Of a stretch of 64,000 nucleotides of DNA, positions 12,194-64,000 are shown one piece after another; the first letter of the stretch is position 1; every line of letters begins with the position of its first letter. This stretch comes from an uncultured Chloroflexia bacterium (GTDB lineage: Bacteria > Chloroflexota > Limnocylindria > Limnocylindrales > CSP1-4): the NCBI GenBank assembly GCA_963794525.1, contig CAWCEC010000004.1, positions 81,222-145,221 of the forward strand, given 5' to 3'. The notes below the pieces were generated by a model that was given only the letters and a program-made list of their open reading frames with translations, made no database searches and had not been told where the DNA came from. Position numbers and translations under genes: made by a program.

Positions 12194-13030
12194 ATGACCG
12201 GCATCGCGGGGTCAACGGCGGACGGACGGCGGGGCGACGCTGCCAGGGGACCGATGGCTCGCTGGGTGCGCGTGCTCGAAGCGTTCGCCGAGCAGGGCGA
12301 ATGGGGCGTCCGCGATCTCGCCCGGTCGAGCGGGATCCCGCGCAGCGCCACCCATCGGATCCTCCACGACATGGCCGGCCTCGGCCTGCTGGCCAACACG
12401 GACGAACCCGGTCGCTTCCGGGTCGGACCGGACCTGGCGCGGATCGGCAGTGGTGTGGCGGCCCACCTCGAGGTGCAGCGCGTCGCCCGGCCGATCCTCG
12501 AGGCGACCGCGGCGGCCATCGGCGAGACGATCGTGCTCGCCGTGTACGACCCGCAGCGTCGCCGATTCTCGGCCGTCGATGCCGTCGAGACCGACCACCC
12601 GATCCGCTACCTGTGGGAGTCGCTCCGGGACTGGAGCGAGCTCCATCTCGGCTCGTCGGGCAAGGGGATCCTGGCGTTCCTGCCGTCCGAGGAGCGGGAC
12701 GCGATCATCGATCGCCTGCCCGATCCGATCCCCGGCCGGCGCCCGATCTCCAAGGCTCGCCTGCGCCGTGAGCTCGATGCGGCCCGACGGCGTGGGTACG
12801 TGGTGAGCCACGGCGAGCGCTACGACGGCGCCGTCGGCATCTCCGCGCCGATCCGCGACGCTCGCGGCCGGATCGTCGGCGACCTCATCGCGACCTGGCC
12901 GGACAACCGGACCAGCGCTGCCAAGGAGCGCCGCGCCGGGTCGACCGTCCGCGAGGCGGCCGACGAGCTCTCGCGTCGGCTTGGTTGGGACGACGGGCGC
13001 AGCGCGGCGCAGCCGCGCCCGCGGCCGTGA
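12194..13030 (+). CDS. IclR family transcriptional regulator
   Basis: HTH GVRDLARSSGIPRSATHRIL; effector domain GETIVL, LHLGSSGKGILAF, GISAPIRD. Confidence 0.93.
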   Translation: MTGIAGSTADGRRGDAARGPMARWVRVLEAFAEQGEWGVRDLARSSGIPRSATHRILHDMAGLGLLANTDEPGRFRVGPDLARIGSGVAAHLEVQRVARPILEATAAAIGETIVLAVYDPQRRRFSAVDAVETDHPIRYLWESLRDWSELHLGSSGKGILAFLPSEERDAIIDRLPDPIPGRRPISKARLRRELDAARRRGYVVSHGERYDGAVGISAPIRDARGRIVGDLIATWPDNRTSAAKERRAGSTVREAADELSRRLGWDDGRSAAQPRPRP

Positions 13031-14046
13031 GCCGCCCCATCAGGCTGGGGATCGTCGGCGCGGGGAAGATCGTCCGAGCAGAACACGTGCCGAGGTTCCG
13101 GGCGATCGACGGCGTGGAGCTCGCGCTCGTCGCCAATCGCACGGCGGCGTCCTCGCAGCAGGCTGCCGCCGAGTTGGGCATCGAGCGCTGGGTCGACGAC
13201 TGGCGCGCGCTGGTCGACGACGACGGGATCGATGCCGTCCTGGTCGGTGCCTGGCCCTACCTGCACGCCCCGGTCACGATCGCCGCGCTCGAAGCCGGCA
13301 AACACGTCCTCACGGAGGCGCGCATGGCCGCCACCGCCGACGAGGCGCTGACCATGCTCCGGGTGTCGCGGGCCCACCCGGACCTGGTCGCCATGGTCGT
13401 CCCGGCGTCGTTCTCCCTGTGGGCGGACGCCACCATCAGGCGGCTGCTGGCCGACGGCGCCATCGGGCGCGTTCGCCATCTGCGCCTGACATGGCAGTCG
13501 AGCGGGCCCGACGAGGCGGGCGAAGCGTGGCGCTGGCAACGCCGCTACAGCGGTGAGAACGTCATGTCGTTGGGGATCGTGTACGAGGCGATCGCCCGCT
13601 GGCTCGGTCAGGCGACGTCGGTGACGGCCGTGACCTCCTACCCGGCGCCCACCGGCGACGTCGCGATCGACGTTCCCGACCACGTGCTCGCGATCCTGGA
13701 GTTCCCCGACGACGTCACGGCCTCGATCGAGATGTCCGCTCGAACGCAGCCGCCCGCCTCGAACACCGCGACGATCTTCGGGTCGGAGGGCACGATCGAG
13801 ATCGACTTCGGGGCCCAGCGGATCCGTCGCGCCCCTGCCGACGGCGAGTGGGCAGACGTCGAGGTCCGCGACGAGGACCGGGCGGGCTGGACCGCCGAGA
13901 TCGACTTCGTGGCATCGATCCGCGATGGACGCCCGGTGACGTTGACCGACTTCGCCACCGGCGCGCACTACATGGCCGTCGTCGAGGCGATCGATCGGTC
14001 TGCCGCCAAGGGCGGTCGTGAGCCGGTCCGGGCGATCGAAGCGTGA
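13027..14046 (+). CDS. Gfo/Idh/MocA oxidoreductase
   Basis: GIVGAG, ALEAGKHVLTEARMA (variant of EKP); GTGA overlap with IclR. Confidence 0.88.
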   Translation: MSRPIRLGIVGAGKIVRAEHVPRFRAIDGVELALVANRTAASSQQAAAELGIERWVDDWRALVDDDGIDAVLVGAWPYLHAPVTIAALEAGKHVLTEARMAATADEALTMLRVSRAHPDLVAMVVPASFSLWADATIRRLLADGAIGRVRHLRLTWQSSGPDEAGEAWRWQRRYSGENVMSLGIVYEAIARWLGQATSVTAVTSYPAPTGDVAIDVPDHVLAILEFPDDVTASIEMSARTQPPASNTATIFGSEGTIEIDFGAQRIRRAPADGEWADVEVRDEDRAGWTAEIDFVASIRDGRPVTLTDFATGAHYMAVVEAIDRSAAKGGREPVRAIEA

Positions 14047-14900
14047 CGACGGTGCTCGACTTCTCGCGGTCCACGATGACGTTCCGGATCGACATCGACA
14101 AGATCCCGCCGCGGACGCTCAGCCACCGGCCGCCCTACCCGATGAACAACGCCCGGGTCGTGCTCGACTGCCGCTGCCGGATCACGGAGCGGACGAGCGG
14201 CCGCACCCACACGATCGTGCTCGGGGCGAGCTGCAAGACGGAACGCGTCGGCGCCGACGCGGACCTGTGGCTGGTGCCGAACGGCGACTTCATCCCGATC
14301 TTCTCCGACGACGAGTTCATGCACATCAAGACGTTCGCGCGGGCGGGCATGGTCTCGCAGCTCGAGTCGCCGGGCTGCGGCGAACAACCCGACCGACTTC
14401 GGGTCCCGATCGAGGGGACCTTCGAGCGGGTCCACCTCGACCTCGTCGAGCGCGAGGGCGAACGGCTGGAGGGTGCCACGGCGATCGTCGAGGCGGTGCT
14501 GGCCAACGACCGCCTGATCGGGATCCATCGCTTCGAGTCGGACCGCTACCGCGTCGAGATCGAATACCCGGTCAAGACCATCAATGCCAACGAGCGCGAG
14601 TGGGTCTACCAGACCGATACCGGTCCGATCCTCTTCCCGGATCTCGACTGCGATCCGGCCGAGCTCCTGTCGCGGCTGGAGCTCGCCTTCACGGCCGCCA
14701 ACGATCCGAGCTGGGCGGAATTCATCGTCCGCGTTCCGACGCGGATCGCCGACGACGTGGACGTCTACCACTACTCGAAGGCCGTCCGCCTGGACGACAT
14801 CGTCAACGAGTTCTACCGGATCAGCGAGGACGGTCCGGTCACCTCTCGTCGCGTCGAGTTGCCGGCCCGCGCATCGGGCGCAGCAGGAGGATCCGCATGA
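14043..14900 (+). CDS. Hypothetical protein (285 aa)
   Basis: Codon usage like its neighbours; GTGA and ATGA overlaps with both flanking genes; no motif I recognise. Confidence 0.8.
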   Translation: MTTVLDFSRSTMTFRIDIDKIPPRTLSHRPPYPMNNARVVLDCRCRITERTSGRTHTIVLGASCKTERVGADADLWLVPNGDFIPIFSDDEFMHIKTFARAGMVSQLESPGCGEQPDRLRVPIEGTFERVHLDLVEREGERLEGATAIVEAVLANDRLIGIHRFESDRYRVEIEYPVKTINANEREWVYQTDTGPILFPDLDCDPAELLSRLELAFTAANDPSWAEFIVRVPTRIADDVDVYHYSKAVRLDDIVNEFYRISEDGPVTSRRVELPARASGAAGGSA

Positions 14901-16024
14901 AGATCACCGGCATCGAGTCCCGGGTCATCGGCTACGACATCGCCGAGGCATGGGGCGAAGGCGTCATGCCGGAGGCCATCACCTCGACCTGGTACGAGTA
15001 CTCGTTCGACACGTTCCAGACCGACGAGGGCGTCGTCGGCTACACGATGCAGAACGCCAACCTGCGCGATGGCGCCGCCGTCGTCCACGTGCTCCACGAC
15101 CTGTATGCGCCGCAGGTCATCGGCGAGGACCCGCTCCAAAGCGAGGCGCTGTGGACCAAGCTGCGGCGGCTGAATCGTCACGCCTACAACCTGTCGGACT
15201 CGATCGCCGGGGCCATCGATGTCGCGGTCTGGGACATCCGGGGCAAGGTGGCGGGCCTGCCGATCGCCACGATGCTGGGGCTGGCGCGCGAGAGGATCCC
15301 GGCCTACGCCACGGCCCGCAACGTCGAGCCCAGCCCGGAAGACGTCTTCAAGGAGGCGCAGGAGCGCAAGGCCCAGGGCTACCACGCGTTCAAGATCCAG
15401 TTCTGGGACGGCCTCGATCGCGACGTCCCGCGTTTCCGGGCGGCGCGCGAGGCGGTCGGCGACGACTACCCGCTGATGCAGGATGCGGCCGGCATGTACA
15501 GCTACACCCAGGCGATCGAGGCCGGCAGGGTCCTCGGCGATCTCGGCTACACCTGGTTCGAGGAGCCGATCCCCGACCGCAACCTGTTCCAGCTCAAGCG
15601 CTTGACCGACCAGCTCGCGGTGCCGATCCTCGCCGGCGAGACGTCACGCGTCCACGAGCTCGCCGAAGGCATGCGGATGGGCGCGTTCGACATCGCCCGC
15701 GGCGACGTGCTGATGAAGGAGGGCATCACCGGTCTGCGCAAGGCGGTCGGGATGGCCGAACTCCTGGGCTTCGACCTCGAGGTCCACGGCATCAACCAGC
15801 CGTTGCTGGATGTCGCGAACCTCCACGTGGCGCTGTCGATGCCGAACTGCCGCTGGTCCGAGACGTTCCACCCGATCTACTACCGGGGCCTCAAGGGCGG
15901 CCCGCTCGACATCGATGCGGAAGGGTACAAGCACCTGCCACCCGGTCCGGGCCTCGGCGTCGAGCTCGACTGGGACTGGATCGACGACAACACGCAGGAG
16001 GTCGTGCGCACCCCGGCGGCCTAG
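14897..16024 (+). CDS. Mandelate racemase/muconate lactonizing enzyme (enolase superfamily)
   Basis: AGGAGG RBS; AIDVAVWDIRGK, FKIQ, metal ligands QD/FEEP/GE, EVH, PGPGLGVELD. Confidence 0.92.
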   Translation: MKITGIESRVIGYDIAEAWGEGVMPEAITSTWYEYSFDTFQTDEGVVGYTMQNANLRDGAAVVHVLHDLYAPQVIGEDPLQSEALWTKLRRLNRHAYNLSDSIAGAIDVAVWDIRGKVAGLPIATMLGLARERIPAYATARNVEPSPEDVFKEAQERKAQGYHAFKIQFWDGLDRDVPRFRAAREAVGDDYPLMQDAAGMYSYTQAIEAGRVLGDLGYTWFEEPIPDRNLFQLKRLTDQLAVPILAGETSRVHELAEGMRMGAFDIARGDVLMKEGITGLRKAVGMAELLGFDLEVHGINQPLLDVANLHVALSMPNCRWSETFHPIYYRGLKGGPLDIDAEGYKHLPPGPGLGVELDWDWIDDNTQEVVRTPAA

Positions 16025-16038
16025 CGGGATCGCGCGAG

Positions 16039-17056
16039 CTACAGGCGGATGACGGCGTCTTCCTGCCATGACCGCAGGGCACCGGTCGCCATGGCCACGG
16101 CGATCAGGCCGTCCTCGCCGGTGATGGCCGGCGGCCGGGCGTCCCGAACGGCCTCGACGAGGTCGCGGACCTGATCGGCGAACCCGCGGCGGAAGTAGGG
16201 CGCATGCTCGTCCCAGGTCGTGTTGGCGTCGGTGAACCGTTCGTCGCGATAGACCGCTTCGCGGGTGTCGCCACGGAGGAGGTCGACGCCACCGTAGGCG
16301 TGGACATCGACGACCGCCTCGGACCCGATGACGGTGTAGTGGGCGCGTTCGGTTGCCGCGGTGCCCGGGATCTCGTACGACATGAAGAGGTCGGCCAGTA
16401 CGCCACCCGGGAAACTGGAACGTCGCCATCCCGGTCAGATCGGGCATGTCCGTCCGGCGCGACGCGAAGCGCGCCACGACGAGCTCCGGCTCGCGCCCGG
16501 CATACCAGCGCACGATGTCGCAGCCGTGGCTGCCCCAGTCGAGCCACGCTCCGCCCTCGCGTGGATCGAGCGGCCAGCCGGTATTGGGGTAGCCGGGGAA
16601 CAAGCGGTGGACGTGGATCGCGATGGGTTCGCCGGCCTTGCCCTCGGCGACGAGGTCGTGGCCCACCCGGACTGCTTCGAGCCAGCGCGAGATCTTGGCG
16701 AGGCTGAGGTAGACACCCGCAGCAGCGCAGGCGTCGATCATCTGCTGGCATTCCTCGACGGTCAGGCCCATCGGCTTCTCGAGGATGATGTGTTTGCCTG
16801 CGGCGGCCGCCGCGAGGACGTTGGGGAGGTGCGCCGTGTGCGGTGTCGCGATCACGACGGCGTCGATATCCTGGCGAGCCAGCAAGGCCTCGATCGACGG
16901 CTCCGTCTCCGCGCCGAATTCGGCTGCCAGCGCCGGTGCGCGCGTGCCGCTCGTCACGGCCGCAAGCCGGGCGGCGCCGGGTTCTTGCTCGGTGATCGCG
17001 ACGGCGTGGATATGGGCCATTTGACCGGCCCCGATCATCCCGAAGCTGACCGTCAT
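16039..17056 (-). CDS. Gfo/Idh/MocA oxidoreductase; frameshifted near 16410
   Basis: GMIGAG, ATPHTAH, GKHIILEKPM, GGAWLDWGSH; the C-terminus continues in the 16039-16383 frame. Confidence 0.88.
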
Positions 17057-17092: not shown

Positions 17093-17163
17093 ATACCGCT
17101 CGGGCGGCGAGCGGATGCGCGTGGCAGCATGTCTTGCAGGCTCCAACGTGGAGGATGACGCCG

Positions 17164-18532
17164 ATGGGCGTGACCGGCGGACCAGGCGATCCGGTCGACG
17201 TGCTCGTTTGCGGCGCCGGCATGGCCGGGTTGTGCGCGGCAGCCAGCGCGGTCCAGGCCGGAGTCCGTCCGCTCGTGATCGAGAAGGGCCAGGCGCCCGG
17301 CGGATCGATGCGGATGTCCGGCGGCACGATCTGGACGGCCCCGAGCATGCCCGTCATGGAGACCTGGGTCCCCGCGGGAGACCGTGAGCGCCAGCGGCGG
17401 CTCGTGGATTGCATCGAACCAGGGCTGGTGTGGCTGGAATCGCTAGGCGTCGTGCGGAAGATGCCGATCGCGAGCGATCGACAAGTGGGAGCCGAAGTCG
17501 AACCCGGCGACCTGACCGATCGCCTCGTCGCTGCGATCACCTCGTGGGGTGGGCGGCTCGTCACGGATACGGCGCTCGAGGCCATCGAACGTGGCGACGG
17601 CGCGACGGACCCGTTCACGGTGACCGTTGCCGACGCCGGCGGAGGTCGCCGCACGATTCGGGCCCGTTCGGTCGTCCTCGCCACGGGCGGCTTCGGTGGT
17701 GGGCCCGACCTCCTGACCCGGTACGTCAGCCCCTTCGCCGACTCGATGCTCCTTCGTGCGAACCCGAACAGCGCCGGGGACGGATTGCTGGCGGCCATTG
17801 GGGCCGGAGCGCGGACCTCGCCGTCGATGTCGACCTTCTACGGCCACACGATGCCGGGCCTTCCGGCGGACGTGCCACCGGACCGATGGGTTTCGGTCAC
17901 GCAGTACTACACGCAGGACGCGATCCTCGTGAACGCACGTGGCGAGCGGTTCTTCGACGAGAGCCGATCCATGGCGGACGAAACCGCGCCGTTCGAGATC
18001 GTCCGCCAGCCGGGCGGCAAGGCATGGCTGGTGATGGATCGAAGGATCCACGACGACGAGCCGCTCGCGGGTCGGTCGCCGTGCCCGGGCTCGCGAGGCC
18101 TACGCGAACGCCGTCGCGGCCGGCGCCCCGAACGTGACCGCCGACACGCTCGACGGGCTCGCGGACGGGCTGGCGGCGCTTGGTGTCGAGCGGTCCGGAT
18201 TCCTGGCCACGATCCAAGCGTTCGGACGGGCGGCGGCCGCTGGGACCGCCGCGCAACTCCCCGTCCCCCGCCGACGAGCGGCATTCGGTCTGGTCGAGCC
18301 ACCGTTCCGGGCGCTGGGCGTCCGCCCCGGGATCACCTTCACGCTCGGAGGCATCGATGTCGACAGCGACCTGCGCGTGCTCGACGACGACGGTCGACCG
18401 ATCCCGGGCTTGTACGCAGCCGGCGCCGATGCGGGGGGGACGTACGACGGTGGGTACATGGGTGGGCTCGTGCTGGGCCTGGTCCAGGGACGGGCGGTCG
18501 GACGGGCGCTGGCCGGCCTGGCCGGACCGTAG
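17164..18532 (+). CDS. FAD-dependent oxidoreductase (FAD_binding_2, fumarate reductase/TcuA-like flavoprotein); frameshifted near 18085
   Basis: GAGMAG, IEK..PGGS..SGG, LATGGFGG, GDG, VNARGERFFDE, TFTLGGIDVD, IPGLYAAG. Confidence 0.87.
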
Positions 18533-18544: not shown

Positions 18545-18970
18545 ATGAACGAGCCAGGTGAGCCGCGGGTCTTCCACTTGGCCGATGTGCTGATCGGGGC
18601 CAACGATCCGACCTCGCGCTCTGCGCGGATCGTGACTCCCGAAACGACGGGTTCTGAGCGGCTCTACGCCGGAATGTTCTGGAGCGAGCCCGGATCACGC
18701 GGCGGCTGGTCGTTCCGGGGCGACGACCCCGACGAGGGCCGGACGCTCGATGGCATCCCGCACCTCGGCTCCCACGATGAAGTCTATCTCTGCCTCCGCG
18801 GCAGGGTCAGGGTCACGTGGGAGGGTGGCGCGTTCGAATTCGGCGCAACCGACGTCGTCTACTTCGCGGCCGGCCATACCTATCGGACCGAGGTCGTCGG
18901 CGACGAGGCGGTCCAGGTGTTCTATGTGATGGGCCCGGCGCCACGATGGATGACCACGCTCGAGACGTAG
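18545..18970 (+). CDS. Cupin-domain protein
   Basis: AGGAGG RBS; PG...H....DEVYLCLRG and DVVYFAAGHTY cupin motifs. Confidence 0.75.
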   Translation: MNEPGEPRVFHLADVLIGANDPTSRSARIVTPETTGSERLYAGMFWSEPGSRGGWSFRGDDPDEGRTLDGIPHLGSHDEVYLCLRGRVRVTWEGGAFEFGATDVVYFAAGHTYRTEVVGDEAVQVFYVMGPAPRWMTTLET

Positions 18971-19015: not shown

Positions 19016-19816
19016 CTAGACGGTGGCGGACCCCTCCGCGGCGGCCGCGCCGCGGGCGAGTGCAAGCTCGGTGCGACCGCCCTCCGTGATCAGTCCGAGC
19101 TCGTTGGCGACCGTCACCATCAGGAAGCCTTGCTCGAGATAGCGCCGCGCGGTGCGCCCGTCACCGGTATGGATCCCGGGCGCCACGCCGTGGCGACGGC
19201 AGGCAGTCAGGACGGCAGCGATCGCGTCCGCGTGCGTCGTCGCCTCCGCCGGTGTCCAGTCTTCCGACCAGGCCGACATCCCGAGACCGAGACCGAGATC
19301 GCCGGGTCCGATGTAGACCGCATCGACGCCCGGCGTCGCGGCGATCGCGTCGACGTTCCGGAGGCCCTCGGCGGTCTCGACCATGACCACGCAGGCGGCC
19401 TCGTCGAGCCCCTCGAGTCGCCTGGACGCCCGTGCCAGTGGTCCGCGCAGCGCTCCCACGGAACGCCCGCCACGTGGCGGGTAGTGGCACGCCGCGGCCG
19501 CGCGCGATGCTTCGTCCGGATTCCCGACCATCGGCACGACGATCGCGACGGCTCCGACATCGAGGGCCTTGCCGATCTGCGCGAAATCGTTGGCCGGGAC
19601 GCGGGTCGTGGGCGCCGCGCCGCGCAGCTCGATCGCACGGAACACGCCCGCCAGGCTCGTGCCGCCCGCCATGCCGTGTTGCTGGTCGACACAGATCTCG
19701 TCGAACCCGCACGAGGCCAGGTACTCGCCGATCTGCGGGTCGGCGGTCGTGAGCCAGCCACCGAGACTTGGTCTGCCCGAATGCCACAGCTCGAGCAGCG
19801 GGTTGACCGAGGCCAT
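19016..19816 (-). CDS. HpcH/HpaI class II pyruvate aldolase
   Basis: GFD.ICVDQQHG, RVPAND, ALDVGA..IVVPMV, YPPRGGRS, MVET, YIGPGDL; GGAGG RBS. Confidence 0.92.
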   Translation of the reverse strand: MASVNPLLELWHSGRPSLGGWLTTADPQIGEYLASCGFDEICVDQQHGMAGGTSLAGVFRAIELRGAAPTTRVPANDFAQIGKALDVGAVAIVVPMVGNPDEASRAAAACHYPPRGGRSVGALRGPLARASRRLEGLDEAACVVMVETAEGLRNVDAIAATPGVDAVYIGPGDLGLGLGMSAWSEDWTPAEATTHADAIAAVLTACRRHGVAPGIHTGDGRTARRYLEQGFLMVTVANELGLITEGGRTELALARGAAAAEGSATV

Positions 19817-19869: not shown

Positions 19870-19885
19870 TAGATTGTCTACAATC
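19870..19885. promoter_or_regulatory. GntR-type operator TAGATTGTCTACAATC
   Basis: Near-perfect copy of the 26505 palindrome in the aldolase/MFS divergent gap. Confidence 0.8.
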
Positions 19886-19920
19886 GGTGATGATACGCGG
19901 AGGCGACCGCCGTTTCCCCC

Positions 19921-23137: not shown

Positions 23138-23141
23138 GGTT

Positions 23142-25394: not shown

Positions 25395-25402
25395 GCGACG
25401 GC

Positions 25403-26437: not shown

Positions 26438-26504
26438 CAGCGGTTGGGTGAGAATGGCATCCGAACCCTCGTTCGCCCGATGGACGGGCGGGTTCCTGAC
26501 AATG

Positions 26505-26522
26505 TAGATTGTCGACAATCTA
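26505..26522. promoter_or_regulatory. GntR operator, perfect 18-bp palindrome TAGATTGTCGACAATCTA
   Basis: Directly upstream of the GntR gene; its right arm forms the -10 (TAGATT) of a minus-strand promoter with TTGACT at 26546-26541 (18-bp spacer). Confidence 0.88.
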
Positions 26523-26587
26523 ATGTTCGGGCTCGGGACGAGTCAAGCCGATCGGCCCGCGCCCGACGGAGGTGCGCCGTGGGGGTC

Positions 26588-47462: not shown

Positions 47463-48626
<1,164 letters not shown>

Positions 48627-56389: not shown

Positions 56390-57526
56390 CTAGCGGAACC
56401 GGCCGCGACCGATGACCGGCCACCGTTCGACGACCCGCTCACCGTCGACCGCGACGAGCTCGTCATGCATGTTCACCGCGCCGCACGCGTGGTTGGGGAT
56501 GATCCGAACGCGCTCACCGATCCGCCAGCCTGGATCCGGCGCTCCGGCCGGCAGCTCGATGACCCCGTGCTCCTCGGTCGCGCGAACGATCGCGAGGTCG
56601 GGCCGGGTCAGCGGCCGGCCCCACGTCCCCCAGCCGTAATCCTCGCCGGCCAGCGCCTTGATCCCGGCATCGAGCACGTAGCGGTCCGCCCGCGCGTGGC
56701 TGACGACGGTCGCCATGACCGTCAGCGCGCAGTCGTCGAGCGTCGCCGGGCCAAGACTGACCTGCTTGAGGTCCTGGAACGCGTACACACCGGCCCGCAG
56801 CTCGGTCACTCCCGGGACCTTCACCGCGTGGCGCGCGGTCGGCGTGCTGCCGACGGTCACGACGTCCGCACGGAGCCCGCGGTCGCGCATGGAACGGGCG
56901 ATGGCGATCGCATCCTCGCCCTCCCGCCGACCGATGGCCGCCTGGCGCTCGGGGTCCGTGGTGCCATACGCGTTCCCGTAGTTCATGACGCCGACGAGCT
57001 CGAGGCCCGGCAGGTCGGCGACGCGCTCCGCCAGCTCGACCGCCGCGTCGGGTGACGCGGTTCCAGACCGGCCTGCCCCGCCATCCAGGCTGACGACGAC
57101 GTCGGCGCGGCGGCCGCGCTCGGCGAGGAAGGCCGATGCGGCCGCCGCTGCGTCGAACGTGTCCACCTCGAAACGGACCTGTGCACGGTCCATCAAACGG
57201 ACCAGGCGCTGGAGCTTCGCGTCGCCGACCAGCGGGTAGGCGACGAACAGGTCGTCGAAGCCTGCATCGGCCATCGCCTCGGCCTCGCCGAGCTTGGCCA
57301 CGGTCAGACCGACCGCCCCGTGCGCCACCTGTCGTTCGGCGACCTCGCGCGTCTTGTGCGTCTTGGCATGCGGTCGATGCACGACGCCGGCGTCCCGGGC
57401 GACGGCGGCCATCGCCGCCAGGTTCGCTTCGAGCCGCGCGACATCGACGAGGGCGACCGGGGTATCGAGATCGCCGAGATAGCGGCCGGTGGCGGACTGC
57501 CGTGCGGCCGACGCCCCCTGGGTCAC
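56390..57526 (-). CDS. DSD1/D-threonine aldolase family (fold-type III) PLP enzyme
   Basis: LDTP, RPHAKTHK, VAKLGEAE, GSTPT, ELRAGVY, DAG.K, EEHG, PNHAC. Confidence 0.92.
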   Translation of the reverse strand: MTQGASAARQSATGRYLGDLDTPVALVDVARLEANLAAMAAVARDAGVVHRPHAKTHKTREVAERQVAHGAVGLTVAKLGEAEAMADAGFDDLFVAYPLVGDAKLQRLVRLMDRAQVRFEVDTFDAAAAASAFLAERGRRADVVVSLDGGAGRSGTASPDAAVELAERVADLPGLELVGVMNYGNAYGTTDPERQAAIGRREGEDAIAIARSMRDRGLRADVVTVGSTPTARHAVKVPGVTELRAGVYAFQDLKQVSLGPATLDDCALTVMATVVSHARADRYVLDAGIKALAGEDYGWGTWGRPLTRPDLAIVRATEEHGVIELPAGAPDPGWRIGERVRIIPNHACGAVNMHDELVAVDGERVVERWPVIGRGRFR

Positions 57527-58694
57527 GTCGCGACCCGCTCGAGGTAGTACGCGGAGCCGAGGGCGAAGCCGGCGGCGATCCGGCTCAGCTCCGTGACGGC
57601 GAGCTCCTCATGGTCACTGTGGTTGGTGATGGGATCGGGCCCATAGCCGACGGCCGGGATCCCGGCTTCGCGCACGAAGTGCACCGCGTTGGTGGCCACC
57701 CGCGCCCGCACGAGGCGAAGCTCGCGTTCGAACAGGTCTCGATGGGCGTCGACCATGGCGCCCACGATCGGCTCCCGGGGGTCGACCGCGAAGCTCTCCG
57801 CGATCGGGACCGCGCGCAGGTCGATGTTCGCGCCGGTCTGCCGGCGGATGCCGTCGACGAGCGACTCCAGCTCCGCGGCGACCTCGGCCAGGTCGGACGA
57901 GCCGTCATGGCGTCGCGTTCCGGCCAGCTCGGCACGCACGGGCAACCGGTTCGGATAGTCACCCGAGGCGAATTGCCCGATGAACAGCGAGGGCTTCGGG
58001 GATGGTGCCGGATCGGCCGCCAGTCGGTCGCGCAGGCCGGCCAGGGCGTCATGGAGCTGTCGACCGACCTCGACGGGATCGATCGTGCCGGGCTCGGCCA
58101 CGGTCTCGTGGACGGCCATCCCGGCACGCTCCACCTCGATCTCCCAGAAGGTCAGACCCAGGCCGGCGATCGGCAGCTCGACCCCGCCGCCGAGCTCACC
58201 GGTGATCACGGCATCGCCATGGATGCCCCTGGCGATCAACGCGTGGAGTGGTTCGTTCCCACCGCTCTCGTGCTTCCCGTGGAGGGTGATGAGGACCCGC
58301 CCCGCGGCCGGCTGATCAACGGAGCGAAGCAGGCGGATGGCCGCGACCATCGCGGCATCGGGGCCCTTCATGTCGGCGGCACCGCGGCCGACGAGGCGGT
58401 CGCCGAGCCGCTCGGGGGGCGTGTGCTCGACGTCGATCGCGTCGAGGTGGCCGTGCCACTGGATGGTCGGACCGTCCGTCGGCGCCGAGCTCGGCGATCA
58501 CGCTCGGGCTGTCGGGGTACTCGCGATCCAGTCGGACGCGGGCCCCCGCGTCGGACAGCTCGGCGGCCATCCGATCGGCGATGACGGCCTCGTGTCCGGG
58601 TGGGCTCCAGATCTGCAGCAGGTCAAGGGTCAGACTCGGCGATCGGCTCAGGATCGATGGTTCGACAGGCGTCGCGCAGGTCGGCCAGGCTCAA
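57523..58694 (-). CDS. M20 family metallopeptidase/deacetylase (ArgE/DapE-like); frameshifted
   Basis: SPPGHE, GHLD, GRGAADMKG, HES, GE, AVH, YGP, HSDHE; TTG start overlaps the GntR stop. Confidence 0.83.
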
Positions 58695-59486
58695 GCGCGA
58701 CCCCTGTCGCTCGGCCCTCTCGCCCCATCGCGCTTGCGTCGTGGGGCGCCGAGACCGGCCAGCATCGTCGGGACCTCGAGGACGTGTTGGCGCGCCAGCG
58801 TGGCGGCATAGTCCGGGTCTCCGTCGCGAAGGGCGTCCACGAGCACCGTGTGGGAGCCGGCGGCATTCTTGAGGAAGTACCTGGCGGTCGACCCGGGACG
58901 GTCGAGGGCCTGGTACGAGCGCACCCTGACCAGCCCATCGAGGCCCGACCAGATGTGGCGCAGCAGCGTCATGCCGGACCACTCCACGATCAGGCCGTGG
59001 AATCGCAGGTCGATACTCCGCGATCGCCCCCACCTCCTGGCTCCTGATCGCCCCCCGCATCTCCTCGATAAGTGCCTCGAGCCGTGCCAGCTCCGGCTCG
59101 CCGATCACGTCGACGGCGGCCGCGGTCGCCCGTCCCTCGATCACCGCGCGGAGCTCGTAGATCGCATCGATCTCGGCTTCGGGCAGCCCGACCACGACGG
59201 CCCCCCGGTGCGGGAAGATCTCGACCAGCCCCTCCTGCTCGAGATGGCGGATCGCCTCCCGGACGGGTGCGCGGCTGACGCCCATCCGCTCGGCGATGTC
59301 GGCCTCGAGGAGGCGTGATCCCGCCGTGATCTCATTGGCGAGGATCGCGCTGCGCAGGGCGCTCAGGACCTCCTGGCGGAGCACACGAGGCTGGATCCGC
59401 TGGAGATTGAGCCCGGCCCCGGGCTGGCCCGGTTCCGTCACCGAGCTGTCGTCGCGAGGGGGTTCATCGCGCCGTCCCGTCGTCAT
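58691..59486 (-). CDS. GntR (FCD) transcriptional regulator; frameshifted near 59010
   Basis: RVLRQEVL..LR, IAERMGVSRAPVREAIRHLEQEGLVE.FPHRGAVVVG; close paralog of 26588-27271. Confidence 0.9.
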
Positions 59487-60771
59487 CGAGCCCGCCCGCC
59501 CGCGGCCGCCGGGATCGGCATCGCCTGCGGGCCGACCGGCGTCCCCGCCTGGAGCACGAGGCCCGGCGAGCGCAACGCGGAGATGGACGCCAGCGGGTCC
59601 GCATCGACGACCAGCAGGTCGGCGATGTGGCCCACTTCGAGGAGTCCGACGTCGGACAGCCCGAAGAGTCGTGCCGTGACGGTGGTCGCCGATGCGAGTG
59701 CTGCCTGCGGGTCCATGCCGTGTGCAACGTACAGCTCGAGCTCGCCGACCATGTCGCCCACGGGAACCAGCGGGGCACCTCCGTCGTTGCCCGCCGCGAT
59801 GCGGACGCCGGCCTTGATGGCGGCCTGCAGGAAGACGACCAGGCTGTCGTGGAGGGCCTCGCACTGCTCGACCACGAAGTCGGGGATCCCCGCAGCGACC
59901 CCATGGTCGATGATCCGCCGGTCCGACAGGATCGTGGGGACGAGCGCCGTGCCGCGCTCCAGCATCAGGTCGATCGCATCCTGGTCGCCGCCGTGGCCGT
60001 GCTCCACCGAGTCGACCCCCGCGCGGACGGCATTGAGGATGCCGATCCGGCTTTCGGCGTGTGCGGCGACGGGCACGCCGCGTTTGTGGGCTTCCTCGAC
60101 GGCCGCAGCCATCTCGTCCACGGTCAGCTGCGGCTGGCCGGCCTGCCGTCCGCCGGTCATCATGCCGCCCGTCGCCATCAGCTTGATCGACCCGGCACCG
60201 GCCCGCAGGTTCTCTCGGGTCGCCCGTCGCACGGCGTCGGGGCCGTCCGCCTCGAGACCGATCCACCAGCCGTGGCCGCCGGTCATCGTCACGACTCGAC
60301 CGCTCGGGATCACCCGTGGGCCCGGGATCTCACCGGCGTCGACGAGTCTCGCGAGCTCGATGTCGATCCCGTCCGGGCCGCCGACGTCGCGGATCGTCGT
60401 CACGCCCGAGCGGAGCGTCGCGTCGAGGCGAGCGGCGGTGCGGATGACGGTCTCGCTCCGGTTCTCGGACGCGCAGGGCCGCCTCGGGGTCGGGCCCGCC
60501 GTCAAGGCAGACGTGCGCGTGGGCGTTCATCAGACCAGGCACGACCCACCGGCCCGTCGATCTCGATGACCTCCGCTCCGGGCGCCTCGAGGTCGCGACC
60601 GATCGTGTCGATGCGCCCGTTCCGGATCAGCAGGTCGGTCGCTTCCGGTCGCGCGCCGCGGGCATCGACCAGGTGACCGCCGCGAAGCAGCAGCCCGCCG
60701 TGCCGCTCGTGATCGCGCGGCCCGCGCAGCCCGTCGCCGAGGTCCGTCCCGTTCGATCCGCCGCCGATCAC
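59483..60771 (-). CDS. Metal-dependent amidohydrolase (Xaa-Pro dipeptidase/Sgx-like); frameshifted near 60545 and 60470
   Basis: PGLMNAHAH, GVTTIRDVG, TGGHG, IKLMATGG, AAHA, VEHG, GNDGG, ADLLVV..DP. Confidence 0.88.
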
Positions 60772-61895
60772 GGCCGGATGCGCGCCCAGCGCGCACTCCG
60801 GGCGTCACCGCTGCCACCGTAGAACGTGACGAGCACCTGCCCGTCGGCCAGCAGGGCGCCGCGGGCATGCCCGAACTGCCATGCCCCCATGTCGTTCCAG
60901 AACTCGCCCTGCGCTCGCGGACCGCCCGCACCCGGTTCCGTGCCGGCGTCGCTTGCCCAGACGACCACCTCGTCGGCCGGATCCCAGGTCCGCCCGAAGT
61001 CGTGGCTCAGGGCGGCGCGGATGCCGGGTGGGTCGGCCCGGTGCGAGTAGACCGCCAGGAGCCGGTCACCACCCAGCGCGATGGGCTGGCAATGCTGGCC
61101 GGCCAGACCGGTGCCGACGGGCGACGTCCAGGTGCGACCATCGGCCGTCCCCCACGCGACATGGATGTCGACGTCCTGACCGGCCGCCGGATCGTGGGTC
61201 CAGAACATGTTGACCAGTCGGCCATCCGTCGGGTGCGTGTCCAGGCGCTGGTCCCAGTAGAACAGGGCATCGTCCGGATGGTGGGCGACGAGGACGTCCG
61301 TCTGCCATGTCGCACCCTCGTCGGTCGACAGGCGCAGCCAGGCGGCCGGCTTCCCGGGCGCCGGATCGTCGCGCTCCTTCCAGTGCTCGAACGGCTGGGC
61401 GAGCGTCCCATCCGACAGGCGCAGCAGCGGGCCCGTGGTCGACGCCCCGGGATGCGGACCGAGGTCGATGCGTCGACGCTGCGGCCAGCTCCGGCCGCCG
61501 TCGGTCGAGACCAGGTGGTATGCCCGCATCCCCAGGAGCCCTTGCGTCTCGGGGTGGACCCACGGCTGCGTCGGGTCGGTCCGGTCCGTCCAGAGCACCG
61601 ACGCGGTGAGCTCGCCGGGCGTCAGCTCGGCGATGTACCAGCCCCGGGTCTCACCGGGCCAGTCCTCCCACACCCGCTCGGACAGGCCCAGGAACCGAAG
61701 CTCCCACGTGTCACCCGCGTCGACCGACGCGAAGATGGCGGTCTGGCCGTCGGGACCCTCGCGATCGGTCCCGAGGCGGCACGTGACCAGCACCGAATCG
61801 TCCGCCAGCCGGATGGCGGACGTCGCCGATGCCGAACGCAAGTTGATCGGGGCCGTCTGGGCGTCCCAGATCACGCCGGAGGCCAGGACGTCCAT
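60768..61895 (-). CDS. BNR/Asp-box sialidase-fold protein
   Basis: SVDAGDTW, STDGGRSW, STDEGATW, TADGRTW, SHDFGRTW; HPETQG, WDQR, MGAWQFGH; GAGGA RBS. Confidence 0.87.
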   Translation of the reverse strand: MDVLASGVIWDAQTAPINLRSASATSAIRLADDSVLVTCRLGTDREGPDGQTAIFASVDAGDTWELRFLGLSERVWEDWPGETRGWYIAELTPGELTASVLWTDRTDPTQPWVHPETQGLLGMRAYHLVSTDGGRSWPQRRRIDLGPHPGASTTGPLLRLSDGTLAQPFEHWKERDDPAPGKPAAWLRLSTDEGATWQTDVLVAHHPDDALFYWDQRLDTHPTDGRLVNMFWTHDPAAGQDVDIHVAWGTADGRTWTSPVGTGLAGQHCQPIALGGDRLLAVYSHRADPPGIRAALSHDFGRTWDPADEVVVWASDAGTEPGAGGPRAQGEFWNDMGAWQFGHARGALLADGQVLVTFYGGSGDARSARWARIRP

Positions 61896-61930: not shown

Positions 61931-61946
61931 CGAATGTATACGATAT
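61931..61946. promoter_or_regulatory. AT-rich divergent promoter with GntR/FadR-like site ATGTATACGA
   Basis: GTATAC palindromic core in the divergent gap; -10-like TACGAT (+) and TACATT (-). Confidence 0.45.
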
Positions 61947-61999
61947 CCCGGCCAGCGGACGTCATCCCATGTCGCCGCGCACCGCCATCGGAGACGCCC

Positions 62000-63131
62000 G
62001 TGACCGTCGAACGCGCGCCGGCCAGATCCCCCGCCGTGGGGATGACCAAGGCGGAGCTCGACACCCCGGTCATGCTGCTCGACCTCGACCGGTTCGAGGC
62101 CAATGCCCGTCGGCTGGCGGACGCCATCAGGGCCGGCGGCAAGGACTGGCGGCCACATTCGAAGGGCCACAAGTCGCCCTGGATCGCCCGCCGCCAGATG
62201 GAGCTCGGGGCGATCGGCGTGACCTGCGCCAAGGTGTCGGAAGCGGAGGTCATGGTCGACGGCGGCGTGCCATCGGTCCTGATCGCGAACGAGCTCGTGA
62301 CGCCCGGGCAAGGTGGAGCGGGCGGCGCGACTGCTGGCGCGGGCCGAGGTGATGATCGGCGCCGACGATCCATTCCACGTGCGCCTGGCATCGGACGTGG
62401 CCTCCCAGCTCGGCGTCGAGATCCCGATGGTCGTCGACGTGAACGTGGGGATGGACCGGACGGGCGTCGCTCCCGGCCGGCCGGCGCTCGAGCTGGCGCG
62501 CGCCATCGACGGCGCGCCCGGCCTGCGGTTCGCGGGGATCATGGGCTACGAGGGCCACGTCCTGACGGCCTGGCCCGATGAGGAGAAGCGAGCCGCAACG
62601 GCGGCGGCGGGCGCCGGGCTGATCGAGTCACGACAGCTGATCGAGGCCGACGGGATCGAGGTTCCCATCGTCAGCGGCGGCGGCTCGGGCAACTACATGT
62701 TCGCCGCGTCGCTCGACGGCCTGACCGAGCTGCAGGCGGGTGGGGCGTGCCTCATGGATGCGTTCTACGGCAAGCTGTGCCACCTCGAGGAGCTCGGCTT
62801 CGAGTACGCGCTGACCATCCTGACGACGGTTACGAGCCGACCGACGACCGAGCGCGTCATCACCGACGCCGGGTTCAAGACGCTGTCCGCGCGCGAGGAA
62901 GGGCAGCCCATCCTGCTGGACCGGCCGGGCGTCGAGCTGCAATACCTGTCGGCCGAGCATGGGCTCTGGATCCGCGGCGCCGACAGCCCCGACATCCGGA
63001 TCGGCGATCAGCTCGAGATCATCCCTGACTACCACGACACCACGACGTTCCGTCACGACGCCTTCGTGGGCATCCGGGGCGACGTGGTCGAGGAGGTGAT
63101 CCCGCTCCTGGCCCGCGGAAAGCTGGCCTGA
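62000..63131 (+). CDS. DSD1/D-threonine aldolase family PLP enzyme; frameshifted near 62310
   Basis: ELDTP, WRPHSKGHK, CAKVSEAE, GMDRTG, MGYEGH, SGGGSG, ELQAG, DAGFK, SAEHG, YHD. Confidence 0.9.
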
Positions 63132-63136
63132 GCGCG

Positions 63137-64000
63137 ATGGATCTGGATCTCCTCATCCGGGGCGGGACCGTCGTCGATGGGACCGGATCACCCGGCGTGA
63201 CGGCCGACGTCGGTGTCCGCGGCGACCGGATCGTCGCGGTCGGGCAGCTCGGGGACGCGCGGGCCGCCCATGTCGTCGACGCCACGGACCGCATCGTGGC
63301 TCCCGGGTTCATCGACGTCCACGTCCACTCGGAGACGGCGCTCCGCGGCAACGGCGACATCTGGGGCTCGGTGCTGCAGGGCGTGACGACGCACCTGACG
63401 GCCCCCGACGGCTTCGGCTGGGCGCCGCTGCCCCAGGACGCTGCGGCCGAGCTCTGGCGCTCGACGGCATTCGCCTATGGCCAGGCGGACCTCGCGCCCG
63501 ACTGGCCGACGATCGAGCGCTACCTCGACTCCTTCGCGGATCTCCCGGTCAACGTCGTTCCGATGGTGCCCCACCAGGCCGTGCGTTTCGCCGTGCTGGG
63601 CTGGGACCCTCGCCCGGCCGATCCGGGCGAGCTGGATCGGATGTCCGAGCTCACCAGGGACTGGATGGAGGCCGGCGCGGTCGGGCTCAATACCGGGCTC
63701 GACTACCAGCCGGCCGCCAGCAGCGACACCCGCGAGCTCGTCGAGCTCGCCCGCGTCGTCGCGGAGTACGGCGGGATCTATGCGGCGCATATCCGCTATA
63801 CCGGGGTCGGGCGAGCCGGCAGCGTATCGCGAGTCGATCCAGATCGGTCGCGAGGCCGGCATCCCCATCCGCGTGTCGCACGAAACGGTCGATGACGAGA
63901 CCGAACCGGTGCTCGACGAGGCCCAGCGGGCCGGCGTCGACTTCGGGATCGACTGGTACGCCTATCCCGCCGGGTCGAGCCACCTCCTCGTCTGGCTGCC
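63137..64000 (+). CDS. N-acyl-D-amino-acid deacylase family protein (3' truncated; frameshift near 63820)
   Basis: DLLIRGGTVVDGTG, APGFIDVHVHSE, QGVTT, TGLDYQP, HIR, VSH. Confidence 0.88.

Follow-up and report, generated by a model that had tools for sequence, protein, structure and literature searches.

A gene island in a soil Chloroflexota genome probably gathers several parallel non-phosphorylative catabolic routes

We analyzed a stretch of 64,000 nucleotides (the window; positions 81222 to 145221 of contig C4) from the genome of an uncultured Chloroflexota bacterium, focusing on the approximately 51 kb that run from window position 13027 to its end and make up 1.61% of the genome. This span is probably (we put the probability at about 0.62) the core of a catabolic island that exceeds 100 kb (approximately C4:50-170 kb) and is composed of independently regulated and independently inherited operons that would encode short non-phosphorylative routes. 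A preliminary description had proposed a single undescribed kinase-free pathway; the most likely interpretation is instead an island of several parallel routes of a known style.

RESULTS

Enzyme families of the span are concentrated in a region without sugar kinases

The genome has 3.17 Mb in six contigs, with an estimated completeness of 80%, and the GC content across the whole window is 70%. Contigs from four soil-metagenome runs (two studies) align to the window with 92-99% likeness. Genes were called from a frame plot of third-position GC content (GC3) and named by Pfam and NCBIfam profile searches. Pfam domains were accepted at E ≤ 1e-5 in the open reading frames (ORFs) of the window and of 20 kb on each side (L022, C4:61222-81221; L023, C4:145222-165221), and NCBIfam scores were compared with the curated (equivalog) cutoffs. 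None of the proteins of the window reached such a cutoff. Hence, functions are given at the family level and substrates cannot be read from the sequence, as the preliminary description had stated.

Several of these families are gathered here. Twelve loci of the genome exceed the cutoff for MR_MLE_C, a domain of the enolase superfamily; seven lie inside the span and nine in C4:1-135 kb, the two further ones being at 6.9 kb and 54 kb. The binomial probability of at least 7 of 12 loci falling in 1.61% of the genome is 2e-10, a value that overstates the clustering because neighboring paralogs are not independent events. Three of the four D-ser_dehydrat loci above the cutoff, and five of the six BNR_2 loci, are in C4:61-165 kb, and a tblastn map of all families concurs with a concentration on this stretch. 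The same families extend 20 kb into each flank (two BNR_2, an HpcH, three Gfo/Idh/MocA of which one is partial, an FAH, a DHDPS, a DSD1, and an Amidohydro_3). The flanks also carry three Dpp/Opp-type peptide ABC systems, several luciferase-like (LLM) ORFs, an S15 peptidase, and a SelA-like pyridoxal phosphate (PLP) enzyme. The upstream flank includes a third pair of DSD1 and D-aminoacylase genes, next to a DHDPS-like gene. C4:61-165 kb thus has three such pairings: two with adjacent genes (DSD1b-DAA2 and the upstream pair) and one, DSD1a/DAA1, within one operon.

The dense cluster of dehydrogenases, enolase-type dehydratases, deacylases, PLP lyases, aldolases, and aldehyde dehydrogenase (ALDH) that had been described without kinases does exist. 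We found no kinase or phosphatase Pfam domain among the called ORFs of the window and its 20-kb flanks. Searching all six frames of the genome for PfkB, FGGY, ROK, BcrAD_BadFG, and glycerate kinase revealed no member of these five families in C4:1-250 kb. The nearest match to a sugar-kinase family is a ROK at C4:250428, and the first PfkB match on C4 is at 398546. Genes of the PfkB, FGGY, ROK, and glycerate-kinase families are present elsewhere in the genome. Hence, the term "kinase-free" describes the island and not the organism, and the claim that sugar kinases are lacking holds for the locus but not for the genome.

Gene content of the span and its surroundings

Every family named in the preliminary description was recovered with Pfam and NCBIfam in the numbers given there. 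Its list did not include a flavin adenine dinucleotide (FAD) oxidoreductase, a cupin, a major facilitator superfamily (MFS) transporter, two GNATs, two GntR/FCD regulators, a threonine-synthase-like PALP enzyme, class-III and class-V aminotransferases, an extended short-chain dehydrogenase/reductase (SDR), an LLM protein, and two BNR_2 proteins. The genes are as follows (window coordinates; bits are profile scores).

12071..13030, +, IclR-family regulator at the edge of the span (Pfam HTH_IclR and IclR_C), adjoining the GFO1 operon also in loci L025 and L030 of genus g27
12985..14046 (start probably 13027), +, GFO1, Gfo/Idh/MocA oxidoreductase (Pfam; best NCBIfam 76-83 bits versus cutoffs of 350-650)
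14043..14900, +, conserved family-less protein, translationally coupled between GFO1 and ENO1 (no match in Pfam, NCBIfam, or Atlas)
14897..16024, +, ENO1, enolase superfamily, mandelate-racemase/acid-sugar-dehydratase type (MR_MLE_N and MR_MLE_C; L-talarate/galactarate dehydratase 123 bits versus cutoff 500; PDB 1rvk, 1.9e-43)
16036..17056, -, GFO2, Gfo/Idh/MocA oxidoreductase, frameshift at ~16406-16416 (Pfam, NCBIfam; one intact ORF in G038)
17134..18532, +, FAD-dependent oxidoreductase of TcuA/KstD/flavocytochrome-c type, split at ~18079-18128 (FAD_binding_2 in two frames; NCBIfam; intact in G038)
18545..18970, +, cupin-domain protein (Cupin_2 26.8 bits, slightly below the 27.2-bit cutoff)
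19016..19798, -, HpcH/HpaI-family 2-keto-3-deoxy/4-hydroxy-2-oxo acid aldolase (Pfam; HpaI 135 bits versus cutoff 369)
19873..21185, +, MFS transporter with two frameshifts, ~20393 and ~20730 (MFS_1 in three frames; single ORF in G038)
21182..21853, -, GNAT1 acetyltransferase, adjoining ENO2 (Acetyltransf_1; extent by G038 alignment)
~21965..23218, -, ENO2, enolase superfamily, three frameshifts (Pfam, NCBIfam, G038 alignment)
~23142..24068, -, 2HDH1, D-isomer-specific 2-hydroxyacid dehydrogenase, split (2-Hacid_dh_C in two frames; G038 alignment)
24165..25463, -, ENO3, enolase superfamily, ManD/galactonate-dehydratase-like (Pfam, NCBIfam, PDB search)
25403..26518, -, FMN_dh1, flavin mononucleotide (FMN)-dependent L-2-hydroxyacid oxidase/dehydrogenase, directly upstream of ENO3 (FMN_dh 322 bits; NCBIfam below cutoff)
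26579..27271, +, GntR1 regulator, GntR and FCD (Pfam)
27268..28368, +, ENO4, enolase superfamily (Pfam, NCBIfam; best PDB match 4ggb, 4.5e-44)
28383..29192, +, GNAT2 acetyltransferase, adjoining ENO4 (Pfam)
29210..~30100, -, Ntn-type asparaginase/isoaspartyl peptidase, split at ~29802-29815 (Asparaginase_2; G038 alignment in two frames)
30105..31202, -, threonine-synthase-like PALP enzyme (PALP 212 bits; NCBIfam 200 bits versus cutoff 303)
31241..32308, -, GFO3, inositol-2-dehydrogenase-like Gfo/Idh/MocA (Pfam; 153 bits versus cutoff 355)
32308..33033, -, PIG-L/LmbE-family de-N-acetylase (PIG-L 42.9 bits; extent by G038)
33069..33998, -, DHDPS/NAL-family lyase (DHDPS 38.9 bits; 67% identical homolog in the transporter cluster of L010)
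33998..35119, -, 2HDH2, D-2-hydroxyacid dehydrogenase (Pfam, NCBIfam)
35046..36405, -, AT3, class-III aminotransferase, GSA-aminomutase-like, split at ~35786-35791 (Aminotran_3 in two frames; single ORF in G038)
36486..38015, +, ALDH, with a frameshift at ~36838 that moves the N terminus out of frame (Aldedh 488 bits; NCBIfam 464 bits versus cutoff 669; G038 alignment)
38006..39097, +, AT5, PLP enzyme of class-V aminotransferase fold (Aminotran_5; beside the transporter also in L010)
39185..43700, +, CUT1-type ABC importer as a whole (lipoprotein binding protein, two permeases, MalK-type ATPase)
39185..40513, +, importer binding protein, SBP_bac_1 (Pfam, 130 bits; also SBP_bac_8)
40541..42405, +, two importer permeases, BPD_transp_1 (Pfam)
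42435..43700, +, importer ATPase with MalK OB fold (ABC_tran and OB_MalK; UgpC subfamily 428.7 bits versus cutoff 432)
43716..44597, +, extended SDR, NAD-dependent epimerase/dehydratase family (Pfam; also follows the transporter in L009 and L010)
44642..45322, -, PF04199 "cyclase," kynurenine-formamidase-type metal hydrolase (PDB kynurenine formamidase, 3e-7; 62-63% identical homologs in L009 and L010)
45374..46303, -, LLM (F420-type) oxidoreductase (Pfam; TIGR03560 211 bits versus cutoff 231)
46308..47429, -, ENO5, enolase superfamily, in tandem with ENO6 (Pfam, NCBIfam)
47459..48626, -, ENO6, enolase superfamily, split (Pfam, NCBIfam)
48974..49901, +, GFO4, Gfo/Idh/MocA, N- and C-domains in different frames (Pfam)
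50215..51072, +, BNR2, BNR_2 beta-propeller protein lacking a signal peptide (Pfam)
51088..52143, +, FMN_dh2, FMN-dependent L-2-hydroxyacid oxidase/dehydrogenase, directly upstream of ENO7 (FMN_dh 377 bits)
52145..53230, +, ENO7, enolase superfamily (Pfam, NCBIfam; best PDB match 3n4e, 7e-61)
53261..54898, -, DAA1, D-aminoacylase family (Amidohydro_3), NGNCG Cys-motif subtype (Pfam; PDB matches)
54862..55608, -, first of two tandem Amidohydro_2 genes (Pfam)
55562..56389, -, second of the two (Pfam)
56390..57526, -, DSD1a, fold-type III PLP enzyme of the D-Thr aldolase/D-threo-3-hydroxyaspartate dehydratase/D-Ser dehydratase family (Ala_racemase_N and D-ser_dehydrat)
57523..58497, -, M20 ArgE/DapE-type deacylase, no in-frame start codon (Pfam, NCBIfam)
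58691..59486, -, GntR2 regulator, GntR and FCD, split (two domains in two frames)
59483..60771, -, AH1, amidohydrolase-type carboxypeptidase/prolidase, Amidohydro_1 at 59483-60505 (Pfam, PDB; 60% identical homolog in L010); the N terminus is probably encoded in a different frame at 60502-60771
60768..61895, -, BNR3, BNR_2 beta-propeller protein lacking a signal peptide (Pfam)
61934..63131, +, DSD1b, second fold-type III PLP enzyme, split at ~62302-62310 (Ala_racemase_N and D-ser_dehydrat; single ORF in G038)
63137..64000, continuing past the window, +, DAA2, second D-aminoacylase-type (Amidohydro_3) gene, split at ~63804-63823 (Pfam; G038 and G023 alignments; C terminus in L023)
9683..12215, -, directly upstream of the span, pyruvate-dehydrogenase-E1/transketolase-type gene of ~844 aa, broken at ~10953, beside a PNPOx-like gene and a threonine-aldolase-type beta-eliminating lyase

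Some neighboring features can be mentioned here. The frame of ENO7 is free of stops until 55069 and so runs antisense through DAA1, by a hidden frameshift before the true stop or an unusual C terminus. Window positions 1646-7277 (+) hold an operon-like row with genes for an NHL-repeat protein, a PLP decarboxylase-fold enzyme, a 732-aa protein whose C-terminal domain resembles the N,N-dimethylformamidase beta subunit, and a BNR_2 protein. In the upstream flank, luciferase-like ORFs cluster at C4:77-81 kb, some of them probably being frameshift pieces.

The inventory includes GFO/inositol-dehydrogenase-like enzymes, two aminotransferases, a PIG-L protein, an extended SDR, and GNATs. Such families also occur in aminocyclitol biosynthesis, and one could imagine a biosynthetic cluster, e.g., for an aminocyclitol or amino-sugar natural product. 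We regard this as very improbable. Pfam revealed no glycosyltransferase, nucleotidyltransferase, NDP-sugar enzyme, polyketide synthase or nonribosomal peptide synthetase, or exporter among the ORFs of the window, and the span has importers with a binding protein, regulators of catabolic type (IclR, GntR/FCD), aldolases, an ALDH, and many old paralogs of degradative families.

Modules of the island are conserved and inherited separately

The genes of the span alternate between strands in at least 13 same-strand blocks, with GntR1 and GntR2 inside the span and the IclR regulator at its edge. These blocks, the three regulators, and the presence of the same families in the flanks speak against one pathway. 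The comparison with other genomes adds to this. Positions 13027-33000 are colinear, with 72-80% DNA identity, in 5 of 30 genomes of the same genus. G038, a short-read relative (180 contigs, 93% complete), is colinear over 6141-39097 but lacks ENO3 and 2HDH2. In G217, AT5 is directly followed by ENO5 and the whole of 39185-46303 (importer, SDR, cyclase, LLM) is missing. The GC content dips to 0.669 at 40-44 kb, within the importer block. The indel relative to the colinear G217, the GC dip, and the position of the closest relatives in another genus suggest that the importer-SDR-cyclase-LLM block was gained or lost as a unit. After the ortholog of AT5, the G038 contig ends (C9; L018:2096-4544) with 2.4 kb that have no similarity to the genes of the window, and whose six ORFs match no Pfam family at E ≤ 1e-3.

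Among 200 other genomes of the order, only two gave a match to the binding protein, and the 30 genomes of its own genus gave none. Its orthologs, 63-69% identical, are in G134 and G158, which belong to genus g24 of the same family as the window genome. In both, the importer again comes with the SDR and the cyclase, and in one (L010) it is also accompanied, in a rearranged order, by ALDH, AT5, LLM, a DHDPS-like lyase, FMN_dh, a 2HDH, and AH1-like amidohydrolases. In g24, no enolase or GFO gene lies within 10 kb of the importer, to either side. Judged by gene neighborhoods, this importer core of about ten genes is the only part of the span with cross-genus support as a functional unit. The IclR-GFO1-family-less protein-ENO1-GFO2 block is kept in genus g27.

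These results bear on the proposal of the preliminary description that the whole 51 kb form one broad undescribed toolkit for N-acyl and amino-sugar acids and sugar-amino-acid conjugates, supplied through the CUT1 importer. The extreme co-location of the families is in its favor, as are the three D-aminoacylase/fold-type III PLP pairings, which mirror the OngB/OngC pair that converts N-acetyl-D-glucosaminate to 2-keto-3-deoxygluconate (KDG), and the match of DAA1 to PpOngB (3.1e-75). The locus also has PIG-L, two aminotransferases, GFOs, aldolases, and ALDH, and no kinase. Yet, one unit of inheritance would not be expected to lose the importer block in the otherwise colinear G217, to lack the binding protein in the 30 genomes searched of its genus, to miss ENO3 and 2HDH2 in G038, or to travel in g24 without nearby enolase or GFO genes. 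The MFS transporter in the span and the three Dpp-type ABC systems in the flanks indicate several entry points and not one. Moreover, DAA1 matches amino-acid deacylases slightly better than it does PpOngB, and AH1 is most like carboxypeptidases and prolidases. The adjacency of DSD1 and D-aminoacylase genes was not seen in the 27 loci outside the genus (see below), and, against a chitin-derived source, this 80%-complete genome gave no GH20 (PF00728) or LPMO_10 (PF03067) match. We find a single toolkit of this kind quite unlikely.

Enzymes and importer are distant from characterized members of their families

All seven enolases have their best NCBIfam matches to models of acid-sugar dehydratases, at 68-180 bits versus cutoffs of 311-750. 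MR_MLE_N and MR_MLE_C were detected in ENO1, 2, 3, 5, 6, and 7, and MR_MLE_C only in ENO4. In PDB searches with ENO1, ENO3, ENO4, and ENO7, the best matches were structural-genomics entries of the mandelate-racemase subgroup. The paralogs are divergent: identities are 24-44% between enolases (ENO5 is not among the scored pairs), 27-46% between GFO proteins, 29-34% between BNR proteins, and 28% between DSD1a and DSD1b. These low enolase values indicate that the tandem ENO5/ENO6 are not recent duplicates, ENO5 itself being outside the scored pairs. Since the paralogs are old, they are likely to differ in specificity. The four Gfo/Idh/MocA proteins fit sugar or polyol dehydrogenases at the family level, all of them below the NCBIfam cutoffs.

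DAA1 matches the N-acyl-D-Glu deacylase 3gip (BbDam, 8.9e-83), the D-aminoacylase 1m7j (AfDam, 7.5e-80), and PpOngB (9kb1, 3.1e-75). By sequence it is a clear member of the D-aminoacylase family, about equally far from all three deacylase types. For DSD1a (PDB matches 4v15, 3.9e-50; 3wqc, 3.6e-49; 3anu, 9e-45), the nearest enzymes are D-threonine aldolase and D-threo-3-hydroxyaspartate dehydratase, and BhcC scores 183 bits versus a cutoff of 690. AH1 matches the L-Arg carboxypeptidase Cc2672 (1.4e-49) and an Xaa-Pro dipeptidase (7e-43), with residues ~1-85 of the chain unmatched. The first Amidohydro_2 gene (54862-55608) has no PDB sequence match at 1e-6.

The importer has the components of a CUT1-type system: a family-1 binding protein with a lipoprotein signal, two BPD_transp_1 permeases, and a MalK-type ATPase with an OB domain. 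The N terminus of the binding protein is lipobox-like, with a hydrophobic stretch ending in ...VAVTAC. Its PDB relatives are distant (best 2e-18) and comprise chitobiose-, sophorose-, and maltose-type binders, from which the ligand cannot be read.

The arrangement of some of these genes could suggest another theme, namely the salvage of D- and L-2-hydroxy acids, D-amino acids, N-acyl-D-amino acids, and unusual peptides (e.g., cell-wall debris), with enolases acting mainly as racemases or epimerases. An FMN_dh gene, whose product would be L-specific, is directly beside an enolase gene twice (25403-26518/24165-25463 and 51088-52143/52145-53230), with D-specific 2-hydroxyacid dehydrogenases nearby. 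This layout is similar to that of the racemase and FMN_dh of the mandelate pathway, which comprises mandelate racemase, an FMN-dependent (S)-mandelate dehydrogenase, a thiamine diphosphate (ThDP) decarboxylase, and an aldehyde dehydrogenase. A GNAT gene is also directly beside an enolase gene twice (21182-23218 and 27268-29192), as in the N-succinylamino-acid racemase route. The D-aminoacylases, the DSD1-type enzymes near D-Thr aldolase and D-threo-3-hydroxyaspartate dehydratase, the M20 protein, the carboxypeptidase-type AH1, the isoaspartyl-peptidase-type asparaginase, and, in the flanks, the three Dpp-type peptide importers and the S15 peptidase would fit the same theme. Chirality has moreover been proposed as the cause of enolase expansions in SAR202 bacteria (PMC6946804). 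However, the best-scoring models for each of the seven enolases are those of acid-sugar dehydratases and not of racemases or epimerases, and the PDB matches of the four searched (ENO1, ENO3, ENO4, and ENO7) are led by structural-genomics targets of the mandelate-racemase subgroup. The four GFO proteins, PIG-L, the sugar-type CUT1 importer, and the aldolases fit sugar-acid routes better. Stereochemical salvage as the theme of the span is a possibility that we take seriously but consider doubtful.

A conserved protein without a family

The gene at 14043-14900 overlaps the stop codon of GFO1 and the start of ENO1 and encodes a protein of 285 aa with no match in Pfam, NCBIfam, or the ESM Atlas. 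We found 508 relatives among 1.84 billion representatives. Its 38 aligned relatives have no credible Pfam match, since the two hits obtained (E of 0.006-0.007) are at chance level and to unrelated families. Residues S10, E67, and P176 are invariant, and D6, N35, R38, C64, N181, and Q190-P195 nearly so. Of 150 other genomes of the family, 9 have the protein; with the genus of the window included, five genera are represented. Its AlphaFold2 (AF2) model is confident (pLDDT 94.7, pTM 0.91) and all-beta, and a Foldseek search of the PDB with it gave nothing at E ≤ 1e-3. With VIA-align, the best candidate (5xta, VirK-family; Z of 6.4 over 103 residues, root mean square deviation of 3.4) concerned the C-terminal half only. 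We assign no fold, because this Z lies in the stated background range of the tool.

The genomic contexts of its relatives are suggestive. In g27, the relative has the same position within the IclR-GFO1-ENO1-GFO2 block. In g26 and g43, an HpcH aldolase gene precedes it, and the neighborhood also has an oxidoreductase (DAO-type or FAD_binding_2), MFS, ThDP enzymes, and M19/M24 peptidases. Of the two g24 genomes, one has it with a DHDPS-like gene and MFS and the other with a BNR_2 gene and MFS. The protein is put forward, from its neighborhoods, as a candidate new enzyme of 4-hydroxy-2-oxo-acid pathways. Beside GFO1-ENO1, it occupies the position where a lactonase would be expected.

One could go further and suppose both that the deacylase/PLP-lyase genes at the end of the span, together with the DHDPS and HpcH aldolases, form a kinase-free route of the N-acetyl-D-glucosaminate (GlcNAc1A) type, and that the 14043-14900 protein is a new lactonase- or isomerase-like enzyme of 4-hydroxy-2-oxo-acid pathways. 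In such a variant, a 2-keto-3-deoxy acid would arise through a deacylase of D-aminoacylase type and a PLP lyase of DSD1 type and be cleaved unphosphorylated. The new element would be this direct aldol cleavage in the absence of KdgK, a point that depends on the absence of KdgK at the locus only. If true, the three DSD1/DAA pairs and the seven old enolase paralogs would open a series of oxidized amino sugars and sugar acids to soil Chloroflexota. We consider the two proposals together unlikely.

A model of several short routes

Under the preferred reading of an island of parallel routes, each operon would encode a short non-phosphorylative route acting at the alpha-carbon of a carboxylic acid and leading to a 2-keto(-3-deoxy) acid. 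An aldolase of HpcH or DHDPS type would then cleave this acid to pyruvate and an aldehyde, which ALDH would oxidize. The span does have both types of aldolase and an ALDH, and no local kinase, as expected of a non-phosphorylative pathway. Whereas the families, the gene order, the clustering, the local absence of kinases, and the separate conservation of modules are observations, we infer every substrate and every order of reactions.

Five modules may be distinguished. Module 1 (IclR, GFO1-family-less protein-ENO1, GFO2, FAD oxidoreductase-cupin, HpcH, MFS) would be an MFS-fed route for a sugar or sugar acid, from dehydrogenase to enolase-type dehydratase to aldolase. Module 2 (FMN_dh1-ENO3-2HDH1-ENO2-GNAT1 and GntR1-ENO4-GNAT2) could deal with both enantiomers of 2-hydroxy or N-acyl-amino acids: the enolase-type enzyme would be a racemase or dehydratase, flanked by FMN dehydrogenases for the L-form and NAD dehydrogenases for the D-form. 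Module 3 (asparaginase-PALP-GFO3-PIG-L-DHDPS-2HDH2-AT3, ALDH-AT5-ABC importer-SDR, and cyclase-LLM) would degrade a nitrogen-containing glycoside or polyol that enters through the ABC importer. ENO5, ENO6, GFO4, BNR2, FMN_dh2, and ENO7 would make up module 4. In module 5 (DAA1-Amidohydro_2 x2-DSD1a-M20-GntR2-AH1-BNR3 and DSD1b-DAA2-Dpp-type ABC), compounds resembling N-acyl-D-amino acids or small peptides would be deacylated and then undergo PLP-dependent beta-elimination or retro-aldol cleavage. The sequence proposed in the preliminary description, i.e., oxidation, deacylation, and deamination or dehydration to a 2-keto-3-deoxy acid followed by aldol cleavage, is reasonable for parts of the island, but not as one whole pathway.

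Several points weigh against this reading. Because no enzyme reaches an equivalog cutoff, the assignment of modules depends on superfamily membership and adjacency. The strand blocks give a lower bound on the number of transcription units, and one regulator or one class of inducers may be common to the whole span. With 7 of the 12 enolase loci in one place, the genes may also serve related substrates of one family, as the preliminary description had it. Within a sub-clade of one genus, descent by itself would produce colinearity, which has little bearing on function. No SMP-30 or metallo-beta-lactamase family and no recognized lactonase for sugar routes was found. The characterized members known of Amidohydro_2 (PF04909) are lactonases and decarboxylases; the two tandem genes could be lactonases, and the "many amide hydrolases" of the preliminary description would then be an overstatement. 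Across the phylum, relatives of DSD1b have a D-aminoacylase gene within 1.5 kb in 2 of 29 loci, both in the same genus, and in none of the 27 loci beyond it; a GFO-like gene is within the same distance in 9 of the 29, eight of them in genus g113.

Many genes of the window are split by probable assembly errors

Using the intact ORFs of G038 (and, for DAA2, also of G023), we placed 13 single-base frameshifts in the window: in the E1/transketolase-like gene, GFO2, the FAD oxidoreductase, MFS (two), ENO2 (three), the asparaginase, the class-III aminotransferase, ALDH, DSD1b, and DAA2. Split Pfam domains suggest further ones in 2HDH1, ENO6, GFO4, GntR2, M20, and AH1. The rate is about one per 4-5 kb. 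Both halves of the split genes retain a high GC3 and 60-90% identity to the ortholog. The soil-metagenome contigs have exactly one letter fewer at 16406, 18079, 22595, and 22796, the deletion at 16406 being seen in contigs X1, X2, and X4 and that at 18079 in X1-X3. These are four of the nine sites predicted in 10001-30000, among the 12 of 30 indel rows listed. Elsewhere in the genome, a glycerate kinase gene is in four pieces (C2:602567-603507), and PfkB genes are likewise fragmented (C2:394223-395087 and C3:697134-697906). Homopolymer runs do not explain the shifts: a run of at least 4 was present in only 3 of the 11 intervals inspected.

The frameshifts are most likely indel errors of the assembly, and for this reason we treated split genes as intact. 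Such errors would also depress the estimate of completeness. Among genomes of the same genus, few contigs tend to go with low completeness and many contigs with high completeness, and few-contig genomes at 91-94% completeness also occur in later samples. Automatic annotation of this genome will label many genes of the island as pseudogenes or fragments, which calls for caution.

DISCUSSION

If our reading holds, the strategy of many parallel kinase-free routes proposed for marine SAR202 bacteria also exists in a soil lineage of Chloroflexota, where it is packed into one island. The island provides a compact list of targets for enzyme discovery: seven divergent enolases, four GFO proteins, three D-aminoacylase/DSD1 pairs, a rare ABC importer, and the conserved family-less protein at 14043-14900, which has no clear structural relative. 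We see its interest, which is moderate, mainly in this compact set and in the family-less protein. The word "undescribed" in the preliminary description has to be dropped: the underlying chemistry has already been described, for SAR202 in the form of non-phosphorylative routes running in parallel (Lim et al. 2023, PMC10444878) and for GlcNAc1A as a deacetylase/deaminase route (Jiang et al. 2022, PMC9537276).

The closest parallel is the cultured SAR202 Chloroflexota "Ca. Lucifugimonas marina," in which paralogs of enolases and dehydrogenases were proposed to take sugars, lactones, and sugar acids through parallel non-phosphorylative routes, partly tested by growth (Lim et al. 2023, PMC10444878). 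Saw et al. (2020, PMC6946804) suggested chirality as the driver of the SAR202 enolase expansion. The likeness concerns the phylum, the mandelate-racemase-type enolase paralogs paired with dehydrogenases, aldolases, and oxidoreductases, the missing kinase-dependent routes, and the resemblance of most enolases to galactonate or rhamnonate dehydratases. The differences are also clear. For that bacterium, 80 enolase genes are reported in a 3.08-Mb genome of 51.8% GC (PMC10444878), and the expansions described for SAR202 are genome-wide, whereas the present genome (70% GC) has 12 loci, nine of them within 135 kb of one contig, packed into an island. This island adds modules of deacylases, PLP lyases, aminotransferases, and peptide importers.

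In the Ong pathway of Pseudoalteromonas, a D-aminoacylase-like enzyme deacetylates GlcNAc1A, which derives from oxidized chitin, and a fold-type III PLP enzyme, kin of D-Ser deaminases and D-Thr aldolases, then deaminates the product to KDG, which is phosphorylated (Jiang et al. 2022, PMC9537276). The structure of OngB is available, with residues named for its specificity (PMC12017989). OngB-type deacetylases group apart from D-aminoacylases. The two systems share a D-aminoacylase-family protein beside a fold-type III PLP enzyme, and deacetylation and deamination would here, too, need no phosphorylation beforehand. Our locus has no kdgK/PfkB, GH20 OngA, SSS transporter, or RidA, and the genome, at its 80% completeness, adds no GH20 or LPMO_10. 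DAA1 is no nearer to PpOngB than to amino-acid deacylases, and it would here fall to an aldolase of DHDPS or HpcH type to split the unphosphorylated product. A GntR-type repressor is in the same operon here.

The classical non-phosphorylative routes are the Weimberg and Dahms routes for pentoses and the diketo-hydrolase or aldolase routes for L-rhamnose and L-fucose. The island resembles them in the predicted series of a sugar 1-dehydrogenase, an enolase-superfamily aldonate dehydratase, a 2-keto-3-deoxy-acid aldolase (HpcH/DHDPS), and ALDH. It differs in that no enzyme reaches the curated cutoff of any characterized member, and in having the family-less protein instead of a recognized lactonase beside GFO1-ENO1. 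The likeness to the mandelate pathway lies in the two enolase genes directly beside FMN_dh and in the presence of a ThDP enzyme (9683-12215) and an ALDH in the window. The enolases of the island score as dehydratase-like and not as mandelate racemases, however, and the ThDP enzyme is of the E1/transketolase and not of the benzoylformate-decarboxylase type.

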